Virus record (IMG/VR): IMGVR_UViG_2675903336_000004
Reading direction: 5' to 3' (one strand)
Source of the DNA: a virus
Lineage: Duplodnaviria > Heunggongvirae > Uroviricota > Caudoviricetes
DNA length: 32,403 nucleotides
Of this stretch, positions 948-30,600 are shown piece by piece (position 1 is the first letter of the stretch; every line of letters begins with the position of its first letter). The notes beneath the pieces were generated by a model. That model saw only the letters and a list, made by a program, of their open reading frames with translations, had not been told where the DNA came from and ran no database searches. The position numbers were made by a program, and so were the translations under genes.

Positions 948-1118
948 GAGGTTGCCCTGTATTCAGTGTCGCTGATTTGTATTGTCTGAAGTTGTTTTTA
1001 CGTTAAGTTGATGCAGATCAATTAATACGATACCTGCGTCATAATTGATTATTTGACGTGGTTTGATGGCGTAGATGCACGTTGTGACATGTAGATGATA
1101 ATTATTATCATTTTGCGG

Positions 1119-1313
1119 GTCCTTTCCGGCGATCCGACAGGTTACGGGGCGGAAGGCGCGCGGGTTTTCGCTATTTATGACAATTTTCCGGTTTAAGGCG
1201 TTTCCGTTCTTCTTCGCCGTAACCTAATGTTTTTATTTAAAACACCCCCTGAAAAGAAAGGAAACGACAGGTGCTGAAAACGGGCTTTTTGGCCTCTGTC
1301 GTTTCCTTTCTCT
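1119..1313 (+). other. cos: prophage cos packaging site (cosQ-like segment, cosN 1147-1158, cosB with R3, IHF site, R2, R1)
   Basis: Sequence gatccgacaggttacg followed by a 12-nt cohesive-end position, then cgcgggttttcgctatttatga. R-site-like repeats CGTTTCC(G/T)TTCT occur at about 1196-1216 and 1297-1313, with an inverted copy at about 1255-1270 and an AT-rich IHF-like site at about 1226-1245. All lie directly upstream of nu1, as in lambda. Confidence 0.85.
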
Positions 1314-1881: not shown

Positions 1882-4901
<3,020 letters not shown>

Positions 4902-4978: not shown

Positions 4979-5031
4979 GTGTATTGCAATGTGTATTGCA
5001 AATTGGCGATCGGGATGGGTGTGTATTGCAA
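4979..5031 (+). repeat. integrase arm-type direct repeats GTGTATTGCAA x3 (attL arm, upstream of int)
   Basis: Exact 11-mers at 4979-4989, 4991-5001 and 5021-5031. Two more copies in the same orientation sit at 15645-15667, just inside attR. Confidence 0.7.
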
Positions 5032-5049: not shown

Positions 5050-6291
5050 ATGGCTATTGAAAACAAACTCAGTGACAAACTGTTAAAGAGTCTTGTCGGA
5101 AAACGGCAGGACAAACAAAAAACAATAGCGGATGGGCGCGGGTTGTCTGTGCGTGTAAGCATGGTTGGGGGGATCAGCTTTGTTTTTTACTATCGTCTTG
5201 GTGGCAGGGAATCCCCTCCGGTATGGCTTACACTTGGTCGCTATCCTGACATGTCTCTTGCAACGGCCAGGCGCATGCGTGATCAGTGCCGTGAATGGCT
5301 GGCTGAAAATCTGGACCCCCGCAGGCAAATAAAACTTGCTGCCGAAAAAACTATGCAACCAGTGACCGTAAGGGATGCGCTGTTTTACTGGTACGACAAT
5401 CACGCCACAACAGCCAGAAAAGAGCATGAATATTTAATAAAACGATTTGAAAAGCATATCTTCCCCTATATCGGTGATATGGCTATAGAACAGTGCAAAT
5501 TACACACATGGCTTACCGTCTTTGACAGGATCAAAAAAAATGCGCCTGTTATGTCTGGTGCAATTTTTCTTGATATCAAACAGGCGTTGCGTTTTTGTCG
5601 CGTCAGGCAATACATCGCGTGCGATCCCTTTGGAGATATTAACGTAAGTTATGTCGGGCGCTCATCCGGTATAAGGGATCGCGTTCTTAATATCAATGAA
5701 ACCGCTGATGTATGGTCTTATGCTTACGGTAATAATTTGCTAACTCTGTCATCAATATATAACCGAAGAATAATGGTTATCTGCCTGGTGTTTGGTTGCC
5801 GACAGCAGGAGGCGAGGCTATCCACCTGGGACGAATGGGATTTAAAAAACTGGGTATGGACAGTCCCAAAAGAGCACAGCAAAAACAAGGAGGCTATAGT
5901 AAGGCCTGTTCCTGACGGAATAAAACAATGGATCGTTAATCTTTACGCAGAAACAAAAAATCGCGGTTATGTTGTCGGTTGTGCTTTGCAAAGGGCGACA
6001 ATAACAGGGGCTGCAAACAGAATATGCAGGCGTCTTGGTCATGATACTAATGGCTTGTGGTGCATACATGATTTCAGGCGCACATTTTCCACTACGCTTA
6101 ATGATATGGGGGCGGATCCTTATATTGTCGAACTTCTTTTAGGTCATAAAGTGAAAGGGGTTGCTGGTGTTTACAATAAAAGCAGGCATATAAAGAAAAA
6201 ACTTGAGGTGCTTAATATGTGGGTTAATTACCTTAATACGATAGCAGGATTTAACAACAACGTTATCGAGCTTAATAAAGAGGTGGTGTGA
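5050..6291 (+). CDS. int: tyrosine-type site-specific integrase (P4-like family)
   Basis: 413-aa ORF with the C-terminal catalytic signature HDFRRTFSTTLNDMGADPYIVELLLGH...VYNKS (His-x-x-Arg and Tyr). Located immediately inside attL, preceded by the arm repeats. Confidence 0.9.
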   Translation: MAIENKLSDKLLKSLVGKRQDKQKTIADGRGLSVRVSMVGGISFVFYYRLGGRESPPVWLTLGRYPDMSLATARRMRDQCREWLAENLDPRRQIKLAAEKTMQPVTVRDALFYWYDNHATTARKEHEYLIKRFEKHIFPYIGDMAIEQCKLHTWLTVFDRIKKNAPVMSGAIFLDIKQALRFCRVRQYIACDPFGDINVSYVGRSSGIRDRVLNINETADVWSYAYGNNLLTLSSIYNRRIMVICLVFGCRQQEARLSTWDEWDLKNWVWTVPKEHSKNKEAIVRPVPDGIKQWIVNLYAETKNRGYVVGCALQRATITGAANRICRRLGHDTNGLWCIHDFRRTFSTTLNDMGADPYIVELLLGHKVKGVAGVYNKSRHIKKKLEVLNMWVNYLNTIAGFNNNVIELNKEVV

Positions 6292-6292
6292 T

Positions 6293-6550
6293 ATGACAAT
6301 TTATTCTCTTGTTGATGAAAACGATTTGCGCACAATGAAGGACATTGATCGGTTCATTCGTGAAAAAGAGTGCATAGCACTTACCACGCTGGCAAACTCA
6401 ACACGCTGGAAAATGGAGCAGGCAGGTAAATTCCCGCGACGTATCAAGATCGGTGAACGTGCTGCAGGGTATCGACTTTCAGAGGTTCAGGCATGGATCC
6501 GTGGTGAGTGGCATCCTGGATGGAAACCTGGAAAAACAAAACAGCAATAA
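6293..6550 (+). CDS. alpA: AlpA-family transcriptional regulator / putative excisionase
   Basis: 85-aa ORF directly downstream of int. The segment IREKECIALTTLANSTRWKMEQAGKFPRRIKIGERAAGYRLSEVQAWI fits the AlpA/Xis-type HTH pattern. Confidence 0.8.
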   Translation: MTIYSLVDENDLRTMKDIDRFIREKECIALTTLANSTRWKMEQAGKFPRRIKIGERAAGYRLSEVQAWIRGEWHPGWKPGKTKQQ

Positions 6551-13509: not shown

Positions 13510-13893
13510 ATGCAGAATCATTACAATGACCTTAAGCCAATTGCCGAAATGATGTATCCGGATCCAGCAGTAGAGGAATTAAAGGCTATTGCTGACAAAA
13601 TGCGTTTAAGTGAACGCCTTGTTGATATGAATCAGGTGATGGAACTTACTACCCTTAGCCGTCGCACATTGCTAAACCTTGAGGCTCGCGGAGAGTTCCC
13701 CGAACGCGTACAGGTTACGGAAGGGCGTAAGGCCTGGTATTTAAGTGAAGTGATCGACTGGATAAACAATATTCCTCGATCTTCTGAATATTGCCGCGTA
13801 CCTGTCCCAAAAAAGCCAGATGCGGCGCTATGCCTCAAGATTGAGCGTGTACGTCGCAATGCACGGGATGGTCGCTATAAGTTGATTGGTTGA
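13510..13893 (+). CDS. AlpA-like HTH DNA-binding protein (second AlpA paralog), directly upstream of the island cos
   Basis: 127-aa ORF with RBS AGGGGG. The central segment MELTTLSRRTLLNLEARGEFPERVQVTEGRKAWYLSEVIDWI fits the AlpA/MerR-like HTH pattern and is flanked by N- and C-terminal extensions. Confidence 0.6.
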   Translation: MQNHYNDLKPIAEMMYPDPAVEELKAIADKMRLSERLVDMNQVMELTTLSRRTLLNLEARGEFPERVQVTEGRKAWYLSEVIDWINNIPRSSEYCRVPVPKKPDAALCLKIERVRRNARDGRYKLIG

Positions 13894-13918: not shown

Positions 13919-13985
13919 CGGGTCCTTTCCGGCGATCCGGTAGGCTACGGGGCGGCGACCTCGCGGGTTTTCGCTATTTATGAGC
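13919..13985 (+). other. cos: island cos site (cosQ-like segment plus canonical lambda cosN GGGCGGCGACCT at 13950-13961)
   Basis: gggtcctttccggcgatccg...ctacgGGGCGGCGACCTcgcgggttttcgctatttatga matches the lambda cos core as recalled. Downstream sequence, where cosB would be, differs from the prophage cosB. Confidence 0.8.
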
Positions 13986-14094
13986 CTTTTTCGGGTGCTG
14001 GTGGTGGTTTTGTTGTTCGCTCTATCTCTATGAATAAAAAGGAAAAGATAAAGCCAATACACCAACCTGAAACATTACTTAAGTGGGGATATTG

Positions 14095-14637
14095 ATGAAA
14101 TCGCACCTGATGAACAAAAAAAACATGGCGCAAAGCTGCCGTGTAAGTGCGACAGCGTTCGACAAGTGGGGAGTGACTCCCGTTGAACGTAAAGGCCGCG
14201 AGGCGTTTTATGATGTTGCCAGCGTAATAGACAATCGGGTTAGCAATGCAATTAACCAGATTACAGACGACAAAGGCGAGATTGATGATGATGAACTCCT
14301 ACGAGTCAGGATCAGATTGCTGACAGCACAGGCAGAGGCGCAGGAGCTTAAAAACGAGCGCGAACGCGGCGACGTTATTGATACAGCGTTTTGTATATAC
14401 GTGCTTTCAAAATTGGCGAGTCAGATTTCTTCAATCATGGACAGCCTGCCGCTTGCCATGACAAGGAAGTTTCCCGACATGAAGCCGTCTATGCTGGATG
14501 GACTGAAAAAAGAAGTTATCAGAGCCTGTAACGCATGCGCAAAACTTGACGAAAACATACCGCTGATGCTGTCCGATTATCTGATGGAAACTGCCGGAAA
14601 CGTACCGGATAAGTTGCAGCCGAATAAAGATAAGTAA
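14095..14637 (+). CDS. Nu1-like terminase small subunit (island-encoded; diverged N-terminal DNA-binding domain)
   Basis: The C-terminal two-thirds align with helper Nu1 (LTAQAEAQELKNERERGDVIDTAFCIYVLSKLASQISSIMDSLPLAMTRKFPDM vs LTRAQADAQELKNARDSAEVVETAFCTFVLSRIAGEIASILDGIPLSVQRRFPEL). The N-terminal about 60 aa are diverged. ATG at 14095 has a GTGGGG RBS; the track ORF starts at GTG 14083. Confidence 0.85.
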   Translation: MKSHLMNKKNMAQSCRVSATAFDKWGVTPVERKGREAFYDVASVIDNRVSNAINQITDDKGEIDDDELLRVRIRLLTAQAEAQELKNERERGDVIDTAFCIYVLSKLASQISSIMDSLPLAMTRKFPDMKPSMLDGLKKEVIRACNACAKLDENIPLMLSDYLMETAGNVPDKLQPNKDK

Positions 14638-14648
14638 CGTAGTACGCT

Positions 14649-14930
14649 ATGACTGAATCCGAAATACTGCGATTAATCCGCCGTGCTTGTGGAATCAGCA
14701 AGCAGCATGACGAACAGGCCACGCAGCCGGACAGCGTGACCGCAGATAATTATGTGCGTGTAGTGGCTGAGGTGATGCGCCGTGACGGTATTGAGCTTAA
14801 CGGCGTGGATATGCGCAACATACGAACAAGAGTCCTTGAGTTGCTGGCATATCGTCGCCGTTCTCAACAACGGAGGGAGAGCGCGAAAAATACTTACCAG
14901 TGGAAGAAGCCGGAACGATTGCGGCGGTAA
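14649..14930 (+). CDS. hypothetical protein (93 aa, Arg-rich C-terminus)
   Basis: Complete ORF immediately downstream of the island terS. No recognisable motif. Confidence 0.4.
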   Translation: MTESEILRLIRRACGISKQHDEQATQPDSVTADNYVRVVAEVMRRDGIELNGVDMRNIRTRVLELLAYRRRSQQRRESAKNTYQWKKPERLRR

Positions 14931-14945
14931 CTTGCTGATATTCCC

Positions 14946-15156
14946 GATAACGCAAAATTGCGCTGGCTGACTTGTTGCATTGCAAAAAGTTAAGCAGGAA
15001 GGCACGGCCTGTAAGATGGGATGCAGTAAGTAGTTCAAGGCTACCTTGTGCTGGCACGCACAGTTAAGCCGTCGGTGCTGGATATCCCCCACTGGGGGAA
15101 AAGCTGGCTACATCCCTCACATCTGAGGACTGATAACGCGACATTGCGCTGGCTGG
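14946..15156 (+). repeat. pair of 24-bp direct repeats GATAACGC(A/G)A(A/C)ATTGCGCTGGCTG, each followed by a short palindrome
   Basis: Copies at 14946-14969 and 15133-15156 match at 22 of 24 positions. Palindromes CGCAAAATTGCG and GTGCAAAATTGCAC lie within or next to them. Confidence 0.6.
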
Positions 15157-15180
15157 CAAAGTGCAAAATTGCACGATGGC

Positions 15181-15342
15181 CTAACCCATTGATTATTTCG
15201 AAAACCTGCAATGCAGGAAATCGGGGAAGTAAGCCTAAGCTATTGATTGTTTCGAAAACCCCCATTGGGGGATGTCGGGAAAGTAAGACTAACCCATTGA
15301 TTCTTCCACAATCCTCAATTTGAGGAGGCCGGAACGTCTACA
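15181..15342 (+). repeat. three tandem 54-bp repeat units, each with a different perfect hairpin (covarying stems)
   Basis: Units start at 15181, 15235 and 15289, each with CTAA(C/G)C(C/T)ATTGATT. Hairpins are CCTGCA-a-TGCAGG (15205-15217), CCCCCA-ttg-GGGG (15259-15271, stem of 4-5 bp) and CCTCAA-t-TTGAGG (15313-15325). Related hairpins lie upstream at 15086-15098 and 15115-15128. Confidence 0.7.
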
Positions 15343-15644
15343 TAGCTGCATCGCCGTAATGATGATTCAGCCCACCAGCCAAATCAGCACAGCAACGACA
15401 GAATAGCCCGACACAGAAAAACCACGAATATGGGGTTTTTGTTATGACATGGTCATGATGACCACTCATACAAAACAGGTAAAGCCCACCAGCCTGATTA
15501 AAGGTTAACCGGAAAAAAGCCAGGTATCCAATCTCGATATGGGGATCCCTATATCGACATTAACGCCCACTAAAACTGTGCATATATGCATAGAAAAAGC
15601 ATCCACCAGCTTTATGACGGATGCCGCTCATCTTATAAATAATC

Positions 15645-15667
15645 GTGTATTGCAGTGTGTATTGCGA
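15645..15667 (+). repeat. integrase arm-type repeats (GTGTATTGCAG, GTGTATTGCGA) at the attR arm
   Basis: Two copies in the same orientation as the three attL copies, about 75 bp inside the attR core. Confidence 0.65.
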
Positions 15668-16316: not shown

Positions 16317-16584
16317 NNNNNNNNNNNNNNNNNNNNNNNNNNNNNNNNNNNNNNNNNNNNNNNNNNNNNNNNNNNNNNNNNNNNNNNNNNNNNNNNNNNN
16401 NNNNNNNNNNNNNNNNNNNNNNNNNNNNNNNNNNNNNNNNNNNNNNNNNNNNNNNNNNNNNNNNNNNNNNNNNNNNNNNNNNNNNNNNNNNNNNNNNNNN
16501 NNNNNNNNNNNNNNNNNNNNNNNNNNNNNNNNNNNNNNNNNNNNNNNNNNNNNNNNNNNNNNNNNNNNNNNNNNNNNNNNNNNN

Positions 16585-20071: not shown

Positions 20072-20697
20072 ATGGCCATAAAAGGTCTTGAGCAGGCCGT
20101 TGAAAACCTCAGCCGTATCAGCAAAACGGCGGTGCCCGGTGCCGCCGCAATGGCCATTAACCGCGTTGCTTCATCCGCGATATCGCAGTCTGCGTCACAG
20201 GTTGCCCGTGAGACAAAGGTACGCCGGAAACTGGTAAAGGAAAGGGNNNNNNNNNNNNNNNNNNNNNNNNNNNNNNNNNNNNNNNNNNNNNNNNNNNNNN
20301 NNNNNNNNNNNNNNNNNNNNNNNNNNNNNNNNNNNNNNNNNNNNNNNNNNNNNNNNNNNNNNNNNNNNNNNNNNNNNNNNNNNNNNNNNNNNNNNNNNNN
20401 NNNNNNNNNNNNNNNNNNNNNNNNNNNNNNNNNNNNNNNNNNNNNNNNNNNNNNNNNNNNNNNNNNNNNNNNNNNNNNNNNNNNNNNNNNNNNNNNNNNN
20501 NNNNNNNNNNNNNNNNNNNNNNNNNNNNNNNNNNNNCCGGGAAAAACCGTTACCCCATTGATGTGGTGAAAATCCCGATGGCGGTGCCGCTGACCACGGC
20601 GTTTAAACAGAATATTGAACGGATACGGCGTGAACGTCTTCCGAAAGAGCTGGGCTATGCGCTGCAGCATCAACTGAGAATGGTAATAAAGCGATGA
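20072..20697 (+). CDS. Z: tail completion protein Z (contains masked gap 20247-20536)
   Basis: N-terminus MAIKGLEQAVENLSRISKTAVPGAAAMAINRVASS... before the gap. After the gap the frame ending at TGA 20695-20697 encodes ...[49 protein letters not shown]. The gap length breaks the apparent frame. Confidence 0.85.
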
Positions 20698-22691: not shown

Positions 22692-25263
22692 ACCGGTAGG
22701 CGATCTGGTCGTTGATTTGAGTCTGGATGCGGCCAGATTTGACGAGCAGATGGCCAGAGTCAGGCGTCATTTTTCCGGTACGGAAAGTGATGCGAAAAAA
22801 ACAGCGGCAGTCGTTGAACAGTCGCTGAGCCGACAGGCGCTGGCTGCACAGAAAGCGGGGATTTCCGTCGGGCAGTATAAAGCCGCCATGCGTATGCTGC
22901 CTGCACAGTTCACCGACGTGGCCACGCAGCTTGCAGGGGGGCAGAATCCCTGGCTGATCCTGCTGCAACAGGGTGGTCAGGTTAAGGACTCCTTCGGCGG
23001 GATGATCCCCATGTTCAGGGGGCTTGCCGGCGCGATCACCCTGCCGATGGTGGGGGCCACCTCGCTGGCGGTGGCGACCGGTGCGCTGGCGTATGCCTGG
23101 TATCAGGGCAACTCAACCCTGTCCGATTTCAACAAAACGCTGGTCCTTTCCGGTAATCAGGCGGGACTGACGGCAGATCGTATGCTGGTCCTGTCCAGAG
23201 CCGGGCAGGCGGCAGGGCTGACGTTTAACCAGACCAGCGAGTCACTCAGCGCACTGGTTAAGGCGGGGGTAAGCGGTGAGGCTCAGATTGCGTCCATCAG
23301 CCAGAGTGTGGCGCGTTTCTCCTATGCATCCGGCGTGGAGGTGGACAAGGTCGCTGAAGCCTTCGGGAAGCTGACCACAGACCCGACGTCGGGGCTGACG
23401 GCGATGGCACGCCAGTTCCATAACGTGACGGCGGAGCAGATTGCGTATGTTGCTCAGTTGCAGCGTTCCGGCGATGAAGCCGGGGCATTGCAGGCGGCGA
23501 ACGAGGCCGCAACGAAAGGGTTTGATGACCAGACCCGCCGCCTGAAAGAGAACATGGGCACGCTGGAGACCTGGGCAGACAGGACTGCACGTGCATTCAA
23601 ATCCATGTGGGATGCGGTGCTGGATATTGGTCGTCCTGATACCGCGCAGGAGATGCTGATTAAGGCAGAGGCTGCGTTTAAGAAAGCAGACGACATCTGG
23701 AATCTGCGCAAGGATGATTATTTCGTTAACGATGAAGCACGGGCGCGTTACTGGGATGATCGTGAAAAAAAACGCCTGGAGCGGGATGCAGCCCAAAAGA
23801 GGGTAGATCAACAGCGTCAACAGGACAAAAATGCGCAGCAGCAGAGCGATACCGAAGCGTCACGGCTGAAATATACCGAAGAGGCGCAGAAGGCTTACGA
23901 ACGGCTGCAGACGCCGCTGGAGAAATATACCGCCCGTCAGGAAGAACTGAACAAGGCACTGAAAGACGGAAAAATCCTGCAGGCAGATTACAACACGCTG
24001 ATGGCGGCGGCGAAAAAGGATTATGAAGCGACGCTGAAAAAGCCGAAACAGTCCGGCGTGAAGGTGTATGCGGGCGATCGTCAGGAAGACAGTGCTCATG
24101 CGGCCCTGCTGACGCTTCAGGCAGAACTCCGGACGCTGGAGAAGCATGCCGGAGCGAATGAGAAAATCAGCCAGCAGCGCCGGGATTTGTGGAAGGCAGA
24201 AAGTCAGTTCGCGGTACTGGAGGAGGCGGCACAACGTCGCCAGCTGTCCGCACAGGAGAAATCCCTGCTGGCGCATAAAGACGAGACGCTGGAGTACAAA
24301 CGCCAGCTGGCTGCACTTGGTGACAAGGTTACGTATCAGGAGCACCTGAATGCGCTGGCGCAGCAGGCGGATAAATTCGCACAGCAGCAACGGGCAAAAC
24401 GGGCAGCCATTGATGCGAAAAACCGGGGGCTGACTGACCGGCAGGCAGCGCGGGAAGCCACGGAACAGCGCCTGAAGGAACAGTATGGCGATAATCCTCT
24501 GGCGCTGAATAACGTCATGTCAGAGCAGAAAAAGACCTGGGCGGCTGAAGACCAGCTTCGCGGGAGCTGGATGGCAGGCCTGAAGTCCGGCTGGAGTGAG
24601 TGGGAAGAGAGCGCCACGGACAGTATGTCACAGGTTAAAAGTGCAGCCACGCAGACCTTTGATGGTATTGCACAGAATATGGCGGCGATGCTGACCGGCA
24701 GTGAACAGAACTGGCGCAGCTTCACCCGCTCCGTGCTGTCCATGATGACAGAAATTCTGCTTAAGCAGGCAATGGTGGGGATTGTCGGGAGTATCGGCAG
24801 CGCCATTGGCGGGGCTGTTGGTGGCGGCGCATCCGCGTCAGGTGGTACAGCNNNNNNNNNNNNNNNNNNNNNNNNNNNNNNNNNNNNNNNNNNNNNNNNN
24901 NNNNNNNNNNNNNNNNNNNNNNNNNNNNNNNNNNNNNNNNNNNNNNNNNNNNNNNNNNNNNNNNNNNNNNNNNNNNNNNNNNNNNNNNNNNNNNNNNNNN
25001 NNNNNNNNNNNNNNNNNNNNNNNNNNNNNNNNNNNNNNNNNNNNNNNNNNNNNNNNNNNNNNNNNNNNNNNNNNNNNNNNNNNNNNNNNNNNNNNNNNNN
25101 NNNNNNNNNNNNNNNNNNNNNNNTGATTCAGAACGACGGTACGAATGGTCTGCCAGGTCCACAGATGATGAAGGCCGTGTATGACATGGCCCGCAAGGGT
25201 GCCCGTGATGAAATTCAGACACAGATGCGTGATGGTGGCCTGTTCTCCGGAGGTGGACGATGA
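22684..25263 (+). CDS. H: tail tape measure protein H (contains masked gap 24852-25123)
   Basis: MAEPVGDLVVDLSLDAARFDEQMARVRRHFSGTESDAKKTAAVVEQS... is a long Ala/Gln-rich coiled-coil protein matching lambda gpH. Confidence 0.93.
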   Translation: MAEPVGDLVVDLSLDAARFDEQMARVRRHFSGTESDAKKTAAVVEQSLSRQALAAQKAGISVGQYKAAMRMLPAQFTDVATQLAGGQNPWLILLQQGGQVKDSFGGMIPMFRGLAGAITLPMVGATSLAVATGALAYAWYQGNSTLSDFNKTLVLSGNQAGLTADRMLVLSRAGQAAGLTFNQTSESLSALVKAGVSGEAQIASISQSVARFSYASGVEVDKVAEAFGKLTTDPTSGLTAMARQFHNVTAEQIAYVAQLQRSGDEAGALQAANEAATKGFDDQTRRLKENMGTLETWADRTARAFKSMWDAVLDIGRPDTAQEMLIKAEAAFKKADDIWNLRKDDYFVNDEARARYWDDREKKRLERDAAQKRVDQQRQQDKNAQQQSDTEASRLKYTEEAQKAYERLQTPLEKYTARQEELNKALKDGKILQADYNTLMAAAKKDYEATLKKPKQSGVKVYAGDRQEDSAHAALLTLQAELRTLEKHAGANEKISQQRRDLWKAESQFAVLEEAAQRRQLSAQEKSLLAHKDETLEYKRQLAALGDKVTYQEHLNALAQQADKFAQQQRAKRAAIDAKNRGLTDRQAAREATEQRLKEQYGDNPLALNNVMSEQKKTWAAEDQLRGSWMAGLKSGWSEWEESATDSMSQVKSAATQTFDGIAQNMAAMLTGSEQNWRSFTRSVLSMMTEILLKQAMVGIVGSIGSAIGGAVGGGASASGGTXXXXXXXXXXXXXXXXXXXXXXXXXXXXXXXXXXXXXXXXXXXXXXXXXXXXXXXXXXXXXXXXXXXXXXXXXXXXXXXXXXXXXXXXXXXXIQNDGTNGLPGPQMMKAVYDMARKGARDEIQTQMRDGGLFSGGGR

Positions 25264-27665: not shown

Positions 27666-30600
27666 ATGGGTAAAGGCAGCAGTAAGGGGCATACCCCGCG
27701 CGAAGCGAAGGACAACCTGAAGTCCACGCAGCTGCTGAGTGTGATCGATGCCATCAGCGAAGGGCCGGTTGAAGGTCCGGTGGATGGATTAAAAAGCGTG
27801 CTGCTGAACAGTACGCCGGTGCTGGACAGTGAGGGGAATACCAACATCTCCGGCGTCACGGTGGTGTTCCGGGCAGGTGAGCAGGAGCAGTCACCGCCGG
27901 AGGGATTTGAATCCTCCGGCTCCGAGACGGTGCTGGGTACGGAAGTGAAATATGACACGCCGATCACCCGGACCATCACGTCGGCAAACATTGACCGACT
28001 GCGTTTTACCTTCGGTGTACAGGCACTGGTGGAAACCACCTCAAAGGGAGACAGGAATCCGTCTGAAGTTCGCCTGCTGGTTCAGATACAGCGTAACGGT
28101 GGCTGGGTGACGGAAAAAGACATCACCATTAAGGGCAAAACCACCTCGCAGTATCTGGCCTCGGTGGTGGTGGATAACCTGCCGCCGCGCCCGTTTAATA
28201 TCCGGATGCGCAGAATGACGCCGGACAGCACCACAGACCAGCTGCAGAACAAAACGCTCTGGTCGTCATACACCGAAATCATCGATGTGAAACAGTGCTA
28301 CCCGAACACGGCACTGGTCGGCGTACAGGTGGATTCGGAGCAGTTCGGCAGCCAGCAGGTGAGCCGTAATTATCATCTTCGCGGGCGCATTCTGCAGGTG
28401 CCGTCGAACTATAATCCGCAGACGCGGCAATACAGCGGTATCTGGGACGGAACGTTAAAACCGGCATACAGCAACAACATGGCCTGGTGTCTGTGGGATA
28501 TGCTGACCCATCCGCGCTATGGCATGGGGAAACGTCTTGGTGCGGCAGATGTGGATAAATGGGCGCTGTATGTCATCGGCCAGTACTGTGACCAGTCGGT
28601 GCCGGACGGCTTTGGCAGCACGGAGCCGCGCATCACCTGTAATGCCTGGCTGACCACACAGCGCAAGGCGTGGGATGTGCTCAGTGATTTCTGCTCGGCG
28701 ATGCGCTGTATGCCGGTATGGAACGGGCAGACGCTGACGTTCGTGCAGGACCGACAGTCGGATAAGGTGTGGGCCTATAACCGCAGTAATGTGGTGATGC
28801 CGGATGATGGCGCGCCGTTCCGCTACAGTTTCAGCGCCCTGAAAGACCGCCATAATGCCGTTGAGGTGAACTGGATTGACCCGGATAACGGCTGGGAGAC
28901 GGCGACAGAGCTTGTGGAGGATACGCAGGCCATTGTCCGTTACGGTCGTAACGTCACGAAGATGGATGCCTTTGGCTGTACCAGCCGGGGGCAGGCACAC
29001 CGCGCCGGGCTGTGGCTGATTAAAACGGAACTGCTGGAGACGCAGACCGTGGATTTCAGCGTGGGTGCTGAAGGGCTTCGTCATGTACCGGGCGATGTCA
29101 TTGAAATCTGCGATGATGACTATGCCGGTATCCGCACCGGCGGGCGCGTGCTGGCGGTGAACAGCCAGACCCGGACGCTGACGCTCGACCGTGAAATCAC
29201 GCTGCCATCCTCCGGCACCACGCTGATAAGCCTGGTTGACGGGCAGGGGAATCCGGTCAGCGTGGAGGTCCAGTCCGTCACCGACGGCGTGAAGGTAAAA
29301 GTGAGCCGTGTTCCTGACGGTGTTGCTGAATACAGCGTGTGGGGGCTGAAGCTGCCGACGCTGCACCAGCGATTGTTCCGCTGCGTGAGTATCCGTGAGA
29401 ACGACGACGGCACGTATGCCATCACCGCCGTGCAGCATGTGCCGGAAAAAGAAGCCATCGTGGATAACGGGGCGCACTTTGACGGCGACCAGAGCGGCAC
29501 GGTGAATGGTGTCACGCCGCCAGCGGTGCAGCACCTGACTGCCGAAGTCACCGCAGACAGCGGGGAATATCAGGTGCTGGCGCGCTGGGACACGCCGAAG
29601 GTGGTGAAGGGCGTGAGCTTCCTGCTCCGTCTGACCGTAACAGCGGATGACGGCAGTGAGCGGCTGGTCAGCACGGCCCGGACGACGGAAACCACTTACC
29701 GCTTCACACAACTGGCGCTGGGGAACTACANNNNNNNNNNNNNNNNNNNNNNNNNNNNNNNNNNNNNNNNNNNNNNNNNNNNNNNNNNNNNNNNNNNNNN
29801 NNNNNNNNNNNNNNNNNNNNNNNNNNNNNNNNNNNNNNNNNNNNNNNNNNNNNNNNNNNNNNNNNNNNNNNNNNNNNNNNNNNNNNNNNNNNNNNNNNNN
29901 NNNNNNNNNNNNNNNNNNNNNNNNNNNNNNNNNNNNNNNNNNNNNNNNNNNNNNNNNNNNNNNNNNNNNNNNNNNNNNNNNNNATCAAACCGGGCCATGA
30001 TTATTACTTTTATATCCGCAGTGTGAACACCGTTGGCAAATCGGCATTCGTGGAGGCTGTTGGTCAGCCGAGTGATGATGCATCCGGTTATCTGGATTTT
30101 TTCAAAGGCGAGATAGGGAAAACCCATCTGGCTCAGGAGCTGTGGACGCAGATTGATAACGGTCAGCTTGCGCCTGACCTGGCTGAAATCAGGACGTCCA
30201 TTACGGATGTCAGCAATGAAATCACGCAGACCGTCAATAAGAAACTGGAAGACCAGAGTGCGGCAATTCAGCAGATACAGAAGGTTCAGGTTGATACAAA
30301 TAATAACCTGAACAGCATGTGGGCTGTGAAGCTGCAGCAGATGCAGGACGGACGCCTTTATATCGCGGGTATTGGTGCCGGTATTGAGAACACCCCTGAC
30401 GGCATGCAGAGTCAGGTGCTGCTGGCGGCGGACAGGATTGCGATGGTTAATCCTGCGAATGGCAACACAAAACCGATGTTTGTTGGTCAGGGCGATCAGA
30501 TATTCATGAACGACGTGTTCCTGAAACGCCTGACGGCCCCCACCATTACCAGCGGTGGAAATCCATCGGCATTTTCCCTGACTCCGGACGGAAAGCTGAC

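Follow-up and report, generated by a model that had tools for sequence, protein, structure and literature searches.

Two near-identical 24-bp sequences follow the last gene of a phage satellite, and the question is whether they form a pair of operator sites or belong to a larger element. The whole stretch of DNA that was analysed (32,403 nt, called the window below) is a lambda-like prophage late region, in which the portal gene (4020–4901 and 15746 onward) is interrupted by a PICI satellite of ~10.8 kb. This helper-embedded PICI configuration has been described by Tommasini, Mageeney and Williams (PMC10111431). The repeats are located in the 815-bp gene-free right end of the island, and the initial annotation interpreted them as paired sites for a dimeric island protein, such as TerS, an AlpA-like protein or a recombination directionality factor. 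The explanation that we favour, as probable though far from certain, is that the two 24-mers are one complete and one truncated copy of one module type in a hairpin array; that this array has a role at the DNA level is a less certain part of it. The data point to the array as a place of undescribed satellite–helper interaction, and not a simple operator pair.

The satellite and its host prophage

Besides the integrase and the AlpA-like genes (Table 1), the island encodes a Bro-N protein, a D5-type primase, an SSB, a gpE-like capsid protein and a gpD-like decoration protein. An exact cosN is placed between an AlpA-like gene and terS, and this cosN-then-terS order is the published PICI cos-rpp layout (PMC9026076). 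The doubled TGTATTGC motif near the right end has partner copies at 4980–4999 (4980/4992), plus one at 5022; in the attP arm motif described for helper-embedded PICIs, tgTGTATTGCantgTGTATTGCa, the doubled TGTATTGC core is found ~81 bp upstream and ~132 bp downstream of the attP centre (PMC10111431).

Table 1. Positions of island features in the window, with strand where assigned
Feature	Position	Strand	Remarks
Integrase	5050–6291		
AlpA	6293–6550		
Second AlpA-like gene	13510–13893		
Island cosN	13950–13961	+	Identical to lambda GGGCGGCGACCT; packaging site upstream of terS
Small terminase/Rpp-like gene (Nu1-related)	14083–14637	+	Nu1 C-terminal domain, different N-terminus; start 14083/14095
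Last island gene	14649–14930	+	93 aa, phrog_1561, no Pfam; stop TAA and last codons overlap the first module
IHF-consensus match TATCAGCAAGTTA	14928–14940	−	Overlaps the stop codon; left part of the first (rha-type) module
Copy 1	14946–14969	+	Hairpin CGCAAAATTGCG and CTGGCTG; reverse complement gives the conserved Rha motif S-Q-R-N-F-A-L-S
Three perfect hairpins between the copies	15036–15048, 15085–15099, 15115–15128		
Last two of these three, as perfect hairpin modules TCCCCCACTGGGGGA, CCTCACATCTGAGG	15085–15128	+	
Copy 2	15132–15155	+	Truncated rha-type module without the IHF-consensus part; degenerate palindrome CGCGACATTGCG
Perfect palindrome GTGCAAAATTGCAC	15161–15174	+	Core GCAAAATTGC in common with copy 1
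U1	15179–15232	+	IHF consensus AATCAATGGGTTA (15182–15194, minus), hairpin CCTGCAATGCAGG; antisense to HK022-type roi (..PPALQ..IINDLG)
U2	15233–15286	+	IHF consensus AATCAATAGCTTA, hairpin CCCCCATTGGGGG; antisense to Stx-phage roi allele ..NPPMVVFEKINNLG..
U3	15287–15340	+	IHF consensus AATCAATGGGTTA, hairpin TCCTCAATTTGAGGA; antisense to roi allele ..LPQIEDCGRINGLG..
Terminator-like hairpin AAAAACCACGAATATGGGGTTTTTG	15417–15441	+	A run before, T run after; closes the array
Doubled TGTATTGC motif of helper-embedded PICI attP arm	15646–15665 (15646/15658)	+	No sequence relation to the 24-mers

The surrounding prophage looks like a decaying or defective element. Its own cos region (window 1100–1180, compared with 13920–13985) reads GGTTACG-GGGCGGAAGGCG-CGCGGGTTTTCGC, so written its cosN is unlike lambda GGGCGGCGACCT at 5 of 12 positions, whereas the island cosN is exact and the flanks are near-identical; self-packaging may thus be impossible for the helper, whereas a canonical cos site is still available to the satellite. 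The early part of this prophage, as seen in an identical genome at L197 (NZ_CP031134.1 89300–116000), has an IS1 near the immunity region and a frameshifted HTH gene, and the capsid gene of that prophage in the NZ_CP031134.1 genome (L001) is split by IS621. A search for roi or rha in the resident helper found neither in its nin region. The window also contains five masked N runs (3140–3426, 16317–16584, 20247–20536, 24852–25123 and 29731–29983), which break terminase, portal/protease, tail and other late genes; the ORF calls across them are unreliable.

The ORF that precedes the repeats is a real gene, with a codon-position-3 entropy of 0.52 as compared with 0.28–0.32 at positions 1 and 2. A three-helix model was predicted for its 93-aa product (pLDDT 74), for which no fold match in the PDB was found, and a scan of genome contigs with the protein gave no match. 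The opposite strand of its last ~15 codons (ISKLPPQSFRLLPLV, 14880–14930) resembles a decayed module (cf. INQLPRRLPQIE), so that the basic tail of the protein may derive from, or overlap, a unit of the array.

The two repeats and their palindromes

The 24-bp direct repeat claimed by the initial annotation is real, as copy 1 (GATAACGCAAAATTGCGCTGGCTG) and copy 2 (GATAACGCGACATTGCGCTGGCTG) are identical at 22 of 24 positions. The distance between their starts is 186 bp rather than 187 bp, and copy 2 ends one nucleotide before position 15156, which had been given as its far end. When the 24-mer pattern was searched with up to 3 mismatches, these were the only two sites in the 32.4-kb window, and none was found in 100 dinucleotide shuffles. 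A palindrome containing TTGC had been reported next to each copy; this describes GTGCAAAATTGCAC, which begins 5 nt past copy 2, but not CGCAAAATTGCG (14951–14962), which sits within copy 1 and is replaced in copy 2 by the degenerate palindrome CGCGACATTGCG. A palindromic core, GCAAAATTGC, is found at 14952 and again at 15163. The two copies were also thought to flank a first pair of hairpins, and hairpins are indeed present between them, but there are three perfect ones. They belong to a dense cluster: 8 perfect hairpins with stems of at least 5 bp were counted in 14931–15345, as compared with 1.84 ± 1.23 over 1000 shuffles (maximum 6).

Conservation in other island right ends

For the comparison with homologous islands, 49 distinct right ends were gathered by BLAST, by contig look-ups and by a pattern scan of IMG/VR; the set is biased in its ascertainment, since the 19-mer core served to find most of the IMG/VR loci. 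The 24-mer-like element was present once in 39 of these right ends, twice in 8, and absent from 2. In 30 of the 49 the element sits 18 nt past the stop codon, counted from its first base, and the first module keeps this position across three satellite types. The second copy, where present, is spaced by 133, 136, 171, 186 or 311 bp, and the 186-bp pair is limited to the lineage of this island. Hence, copy 1 is conserved and the two-site pair is not, and the conserved unit is a single module right after the last gene. Copy 1 is non-random and kept in related islands, and it therefore escapes the objection that the initial annotation had itself raised, namely that the repeats could be missing or not conserved in related elements.

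Many satellites of E. coli, Shigella and Salmonella end in the 93-aa gene with a long untranslated stretch behind it. These satellites are integrated at various places (cspD/clpS, phoQ, ydgV, terminase genes, portal genes), and they include classic Rpp/Nu1 islands, capsid-forming satellites with their own TerL and portal, and helper-embedded ones. Arrays of 1 to 7 modules in shuffled combinations end many of the E. coli, Shigella and Salmonella PICIs, and the number and order of modules differ freely among islands. Matches to the modules were found in 837–1217 of 5426 E. coli genomes, at island ends or within roi genes, and not in the core genome.

These data make it extremely improbable that the 24-mers are paired sites for TerS, an AlpA-like protein or a directionality factor of the island. 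The presence of the core GCAAAATTGC at both places and of two AlpA-like genes would agree with such a role, but neither the pair nor its spacing is conserved, and the occurrence of GCAANNTTGC twice in the window is unremarkable, given that 33 of 100 shuffles had it at least twice. TerS is an unlikely binder, as the cos/TerS site lies ~1 kb upstream, beside the exact cosN. An AlpA-type binder is unlikely because the candidate integrase/AlpA motif, the doubled TGTATTGC of the known arm, is located elsewhere and is unrelated in sequence. Two related candidates were rejected. The repeats are not cosB, Nu1 or Rpp sites, because the island cosN lies upstream of terS, and the repeats start at 14946, beyond terS and one further gene, rather than between cosN and terS. 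They are also not integrase arm sites, since they lie 490–700 bp further in and have no sequence in common with the arm motif.

An array of structurally constrained hairpin modules

The right ends are mosaics of short modules. In the commonest module, the left part fits YAANNNNYTGATW, which is the reverse complement of the IHF consensus WATCARNNNNTTR, and is followed after 8–11 nt by a perfect hairpin, the sequence of which changes from module to module (17 distinct inner hairpin types). When occurrences were searched from the motif alone, 67% of the 61 distinct ones had a perfect stem of at least 5 bp within 6–13 nt after the motif, as compared with 2% in shuffled tails and 2% at random island positions. 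All four matches to WATCARNNNNTTR in the window fall in 14928–15302, at 14928–14940, 15182–15194, 15236–15248 and 15290–15302, every one on the minus strand. The invariance of the motif in unit alignments is circular, because that motif had served to ascertain the units, and of the 8 perfect hairpins in the window, 4 are without it. In this island the order is the first module (14928–14969), short hairpin modules, copy 2, GTGCAAAATTGCAC, U1–U3 (15179–15340) and the terminator-like hairpin, which recurs in other islands with a compensated stem. No promoter-like site was found inside the array.

The covariation of the hairpins was measured in 24 units of odd length, aligned without gaps. Of the six inner-hairpin pairs, five vary on both sides, none of 500 shuffles reached the covariation score of the tested structure (inner hairpin plus outer helix), and pairing dropped from 85% to ~50% once the partners were slid by one column. 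The palindrome of the initial annotation has the compensatory stem variants CGCA/TGCG, CTCA/TGAG and CCCA/TGGG in otherwise similar modules, with a half-changed intermediate, and a further compensated change leads from GCGC..GCGC to GCTC..GAGC; in most copies the palindromes are perfect. The palindrome is unlike one sequence-specific dimer site, because the stems differ with compensatory changes and the centre varies by 1–4 nt, and it behaves like a structural hairpin. One further structural candidate, a G·U-rich outer helix (columns 19–24 with 44–49) that would have marked the plus strand as a functional RNA, was rejected, since it was 88.9% paired as compared with 86.4% in shuffles.

The array is non-coding. 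The open frame on its minus strand (15340–15041) is unlikely to be a gene: Pfam gave no match, a plausible start and a ribosome-binding site are both missing, and in other islands the frame is interrupted in different ways; unit periods of 48, 49, 54, 85 and 95 nt disrupt a continuous minus-strand frame in other islands.

One reading of these structures is that they act only in cis, as 3′-UTR hairpins resembling REP/BIME stem–loops, which would keep 3′ exonucleases off the late mRNA or dampen read-through that crosses attP towards int or neighbouring genes, the rha/roi ancestry described below being incidental. The hairpins are indeed selected as structures, with compensatory changes and variable loops, their density is about 4 times that expected by chance, they lie after the last gene and ahead of a terminator, and module number and order are free to vary between islands. 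We nevertheless regard this reading as improbable, since it leaves unexplained the repeated use of one ~50-bp segment from several roi/rha alleles with homology stopping at the borders, and also the perfect IHF consensus at a fixed distance in the modules that bear the motif.

The region between the terminator-like hairpin and attR contains other repeated elements. The sequence (A/C)CCACCAGC occurs three times, ~115 bp apart (15369–15380, 15483–15494 and 15600–15611), the palindrome TGGTCATGATGACCA is at 15450–15464, and a long palindrome, CGATATGGGGATCCCTATATCG, at about 15534–15557. All of these elements recur as modules in other islands, and they may serve the attP region as arm-type or accessory sites.

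Homology of the modules to roi and rha

Judged by sequence homology, all modules are antisense copies of one ~50-bp segment in the Phage_pRha coding region of the roi and rha genes of lambdoid phages. This segment belongs to the N-terminal winged-helix region, where it encodes the part that comes after the recognition helix, and contains an intragenic palindrome, followed 10–11 bp on by an IHF-consensus sequence; Roi N-terminal domains score as Pfam Phage_pRha. In HK022 roi, codons 40–58 contain the palindrome CTGCATTGCAG and, 11 nt off, the only IHF-consensus match of the gene. A sensitive search of E. coli genomes found single units inside annotated phage antirepressor genes, and in 100 phage records with matches, from Stx-converting and HK-type lambdoid phages, every listed match was inside a roi/anti-repressor gene where annotated. 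The orientation of the modules, checked directly in seven loci, is antisense relative to the late-gene strand of the island.

The three tandem 54-nt units U1–U3 each match a different roi allele. The identity of U3 to its allele is ~96% over 49–50 nt (47/49; 48/50) and that of U2 is 90.6% (48/53 nt); U1 matches HK022 at 30 of 39 positions and shares the palindrome and the IHF consensus of HK022 roi (VIKPPALQHTNIINDLG). Among themselves the units are only 70–80% identical. Read on the minus strand from 15340 to 15041, the sequence TFRPPQIEDCGRINGLVLL / SRHPPMGVFETINSLGLL / PRFPALQVFEIINGLGHR / AILHFASQRNVALS... repeats the 18-codon Roi segment VIR-LPQIEDCGRINGLG- three times in tandem and then gives the Rha motif. 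The homology between island and phage ends at the module borders.

The 24-mer is the rha version of this segment (codons S-Q-R-N-F-A-L), with CAGCCAGCGCAATTTTGCGTTATC as the reverse complement that encodes the motif, and its module aligns, with indels, to two IMG/VR rha genes (L037 and L043) encoding FSQRNFALAEY. A rha-type unit variant is 84.6% identical to Stx2a-phage rha over 39 nt, where the matches are individually weak (E = 0.06 each); among the listed matches they were found in about 40 Stx phage records, under a Rha-family gene wherever annotated, consistent in family and orientation. The 19-mer CGCAAAATTGCGYTGGCTG is also present within Rha-family genes of unrelated phages (IMG/VR L032, L037 and L043), and in L037 it forms the centre of a 26-bp perfect palindrome encoding FSQRNFALAEY.

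A perfect palindrome is present at the homologous position in 6 of the 7 phage alleles examined, with a different sequence each time (CCTCAAATTGAGG, CGCCAATGGCG, CTGCATTGCAG, GCGCAATTTTGCGC and the 26-bp one in L037), and for this reason it is a selected feature of the phage genes themselves. The occurrence of the 19-mer in Rha-family genes of unrelated phages suggests that an intragenic palindrome is conserved across the Phage_pRha family. The proposed connection of the repeats with DNA-binding proteins is thus retained in another form, since the genes of winged-helix regulators (Rha/Roi) contain a palindromic segment to which the sequence is homologous, while the idea of paired protein sites is not supported by a pair that is not conserved and by stems that covary.

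This ancestry could also have left neutral remnants, if slippage had multiplied an rha/roi-like fragment captured at the island end, and gene conversion with helper genes had then made its copies diverge, without any function. The frames that are open in the roi sense within units, together with the unit periods that break the ORF, the indels between the first unit and rha, and the mosaic composition would all be expected of such debris. We consider it very improbable, as most palindromes are still perfect and their variants compensated, and as the first module holds its position in the 30 right ends of three satellite types.

Overall, the ancestry and the architecture of the array are well supported by these alignments. 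The data showed modules that are under structural constraint, specific to satellites, and multiplied from one discrete element of the helper regulator genes.

Possible functions of the array

From these features we infer three options for the function of the array: a decoy or sensor platform for Rha/Roi and IHF, an antisense RNA array, or the cis-acting 3′-UTR hairpins considered above. Clerget and Boccard, in 1996, reportedly observed that Roi of HK022 binds a site within its own gene which is closely linked to an IHF site, and rha is said to be inhibitory in IHF mutants, as reported by Henthorn and Friedman in 1995. We tentatively propose, at less than an even chance, that the array acts at the DNA level, multiplying the bipartite roi site and binding helper Rha/Roi and IHF as a decoy or sensor. 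On this view the array, which fills the untranslated stretch from the last gene of the PICI to the terminator-like hairpin, provides copies of the internal bipartite site of roi. The replicating satellite is predicted to bind Rha/Roi-family proteins of the helper together with host IHF, and the bound array could either serve as a decoy or sense the lytic growth of the helper. In the excised circle it would be placed beside attP and upstream of int.

Several observations speak against parts of this proposal. The IHF consensus overlies the roi codons I-N-x-L-G, and its conservation could possibly result from coding descent rather than from IHF binding. The palindrome arms are without a common half-site around their variable centre, which fits a hairpin better than one operator family. 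The resident prophage has no roi or rha in its nin region, which is a counterpoint to a helper-specific role here, and the uniform orientation of the modules and their place before a terminator suit an RNA role equally well.

Such an RNA role would be that of an antisense array, in which the modules are transcribed as the 3′ tail of the late operon and pair with complementary hairpins of rha/roi mRNAs by kissing-loop contacts; with several alleles, one satellite could act on several helpers. This is consistent with the antisense orientation of every checked module to the phage gene relative to the late strand, with the 90–96% complementarity over about 50 nt in U2 and U3, and with the location of the array, which has the last ORF on one side, a conserved terminator-like hairpin on the other and no promoter-like site of its own. 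Both strands of the array fold better than shuffles (z = −3.8 and −4.0), and RNA–RNA control is already used by this satellite class, with C4 and isrK matches in a related island. On the other hand, the resident helper has neither target gene in its nin region, the island palindromes are more perfect or longer than those of some phage alleles (CCCCCATTGGGGG versus CCACCATTGGGGG), which reduces the complementarity to those alleles, and the G·U-dependent outer helix that would mark the plus strand is no better than expected from base composition. We therefore consider the antisense array rather unlikely, and the DNA-level platform remains the preferred option.

A broader reading covers both kinds of action, namely that phage satellites of E. 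coli keep, at the late-operon end, a recombining library of the rha/roi segment, in many alleles, which would be used as expressed antisense hairpins or as multiplied Roi/Rha–IHF sites and would serve to sense or blunt a helper function. This is doubtful, if still worth considering; if true, the library would record helpers by their sequence, independently of Cas, and a conserved cis element within Phage_pRha genes would come to light.

Comparison with known systems

To our knowledge, the ways in which Gram-negative PICIs sense and manipulate their helpers are partly known, and the redirection of packaging by Rpp is the sole worked-out case. A conserved, satellite-specific array built from segments of helper regulatory genes would be a new point of satellite–helper contact. 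Its origin is unusual; repeat arrays composed of cis elements or of antisense modules are as such already known. The rha/roi genes themselves, whose products reportedly inhibit the growth of phages in hosts deficient in IHF, appear to contain a palindrome that is conserved within the gene and lies next to an IHF consensus, which is worth studying in its own right, and the array could be of practical use as a sequence signature for the right end of this island class. No mention of a right-end array was found in the PICI papers examined, including PMC10111431 and PMC9026076, and full-text searches with the hairpin sequences returned nothing relevant.

Several described elements were compared with the array and rejected. 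The sRNA Esr41 and others from EHEC islands were placed on another island, SpLE1. Judged from the sequence, the array does not fit nut-like boxA/boxB, CsrA-type decoys, integron attC sites or CRISPR or RNA anti-CRISPR mimicry in loop, core or repeat, and its stems are variable. A search with Rfam 15, including CRISPR repeats, C4 and isrK, gave no match in the window at the gathering threshold (best sub-threshold E = 6–9), and in related islands no match fell within the right ends.

The short structured base-pairing RNAs of satellites, which are P4 CI/seqA, C4 antisense RNA and isrK, would be similar in kind to an antisense array, and homologues of C4 and isrK are present in related islands (PMC10111431). 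In an APEC island at cspD/clpS (L002), a C4 antisense RNA (82 bits) lies beside isrK (75 bits) at 4645–4833, in the Bro zone; that island is flanked by a type I-F CRISPR array and cas genes, and the island of the window has no such C4 or isrK match. Unlike C4 and isrK, which are located in the Bro zone near int and have Rfam models, the array has no Rfam match, and it would target helper genes rather than its own leader.

Lambda cosB, with its R sites and the IHF site I1, shares with the array the combination of repeated short sites and an IHF site in a packaging-related region near terS. It differs in position, since cosB follows cosN within about 200 bp and precedes terS, whereas the array is 1 kb past cosN; published PICI cos sites are without repeated R sites (PMC9026076).

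The REP/BIME elements (IHF-binding RIP/RIB, BIME-1) resemble the array in that they are mosaics of tandem palindromic units with an IHF-consensus linker, placed after the last gene of an operon, and they have possible roles in mRNA stability or in the binding of nucleoid proteins. In contrast to them, the array has no REP consensus or shared stem, is limited to satellites and single phage-gene copies, and comes from a coding segment.

The reported Roi/IHF site in HK022 roi is putatively in the same ~50-bp segment as the modules of the array. As compared with that segment, the satellite version is non-coding, tandemly multiplied, put together from several alleles, mixed with the rha type, and antisense to the late genes.
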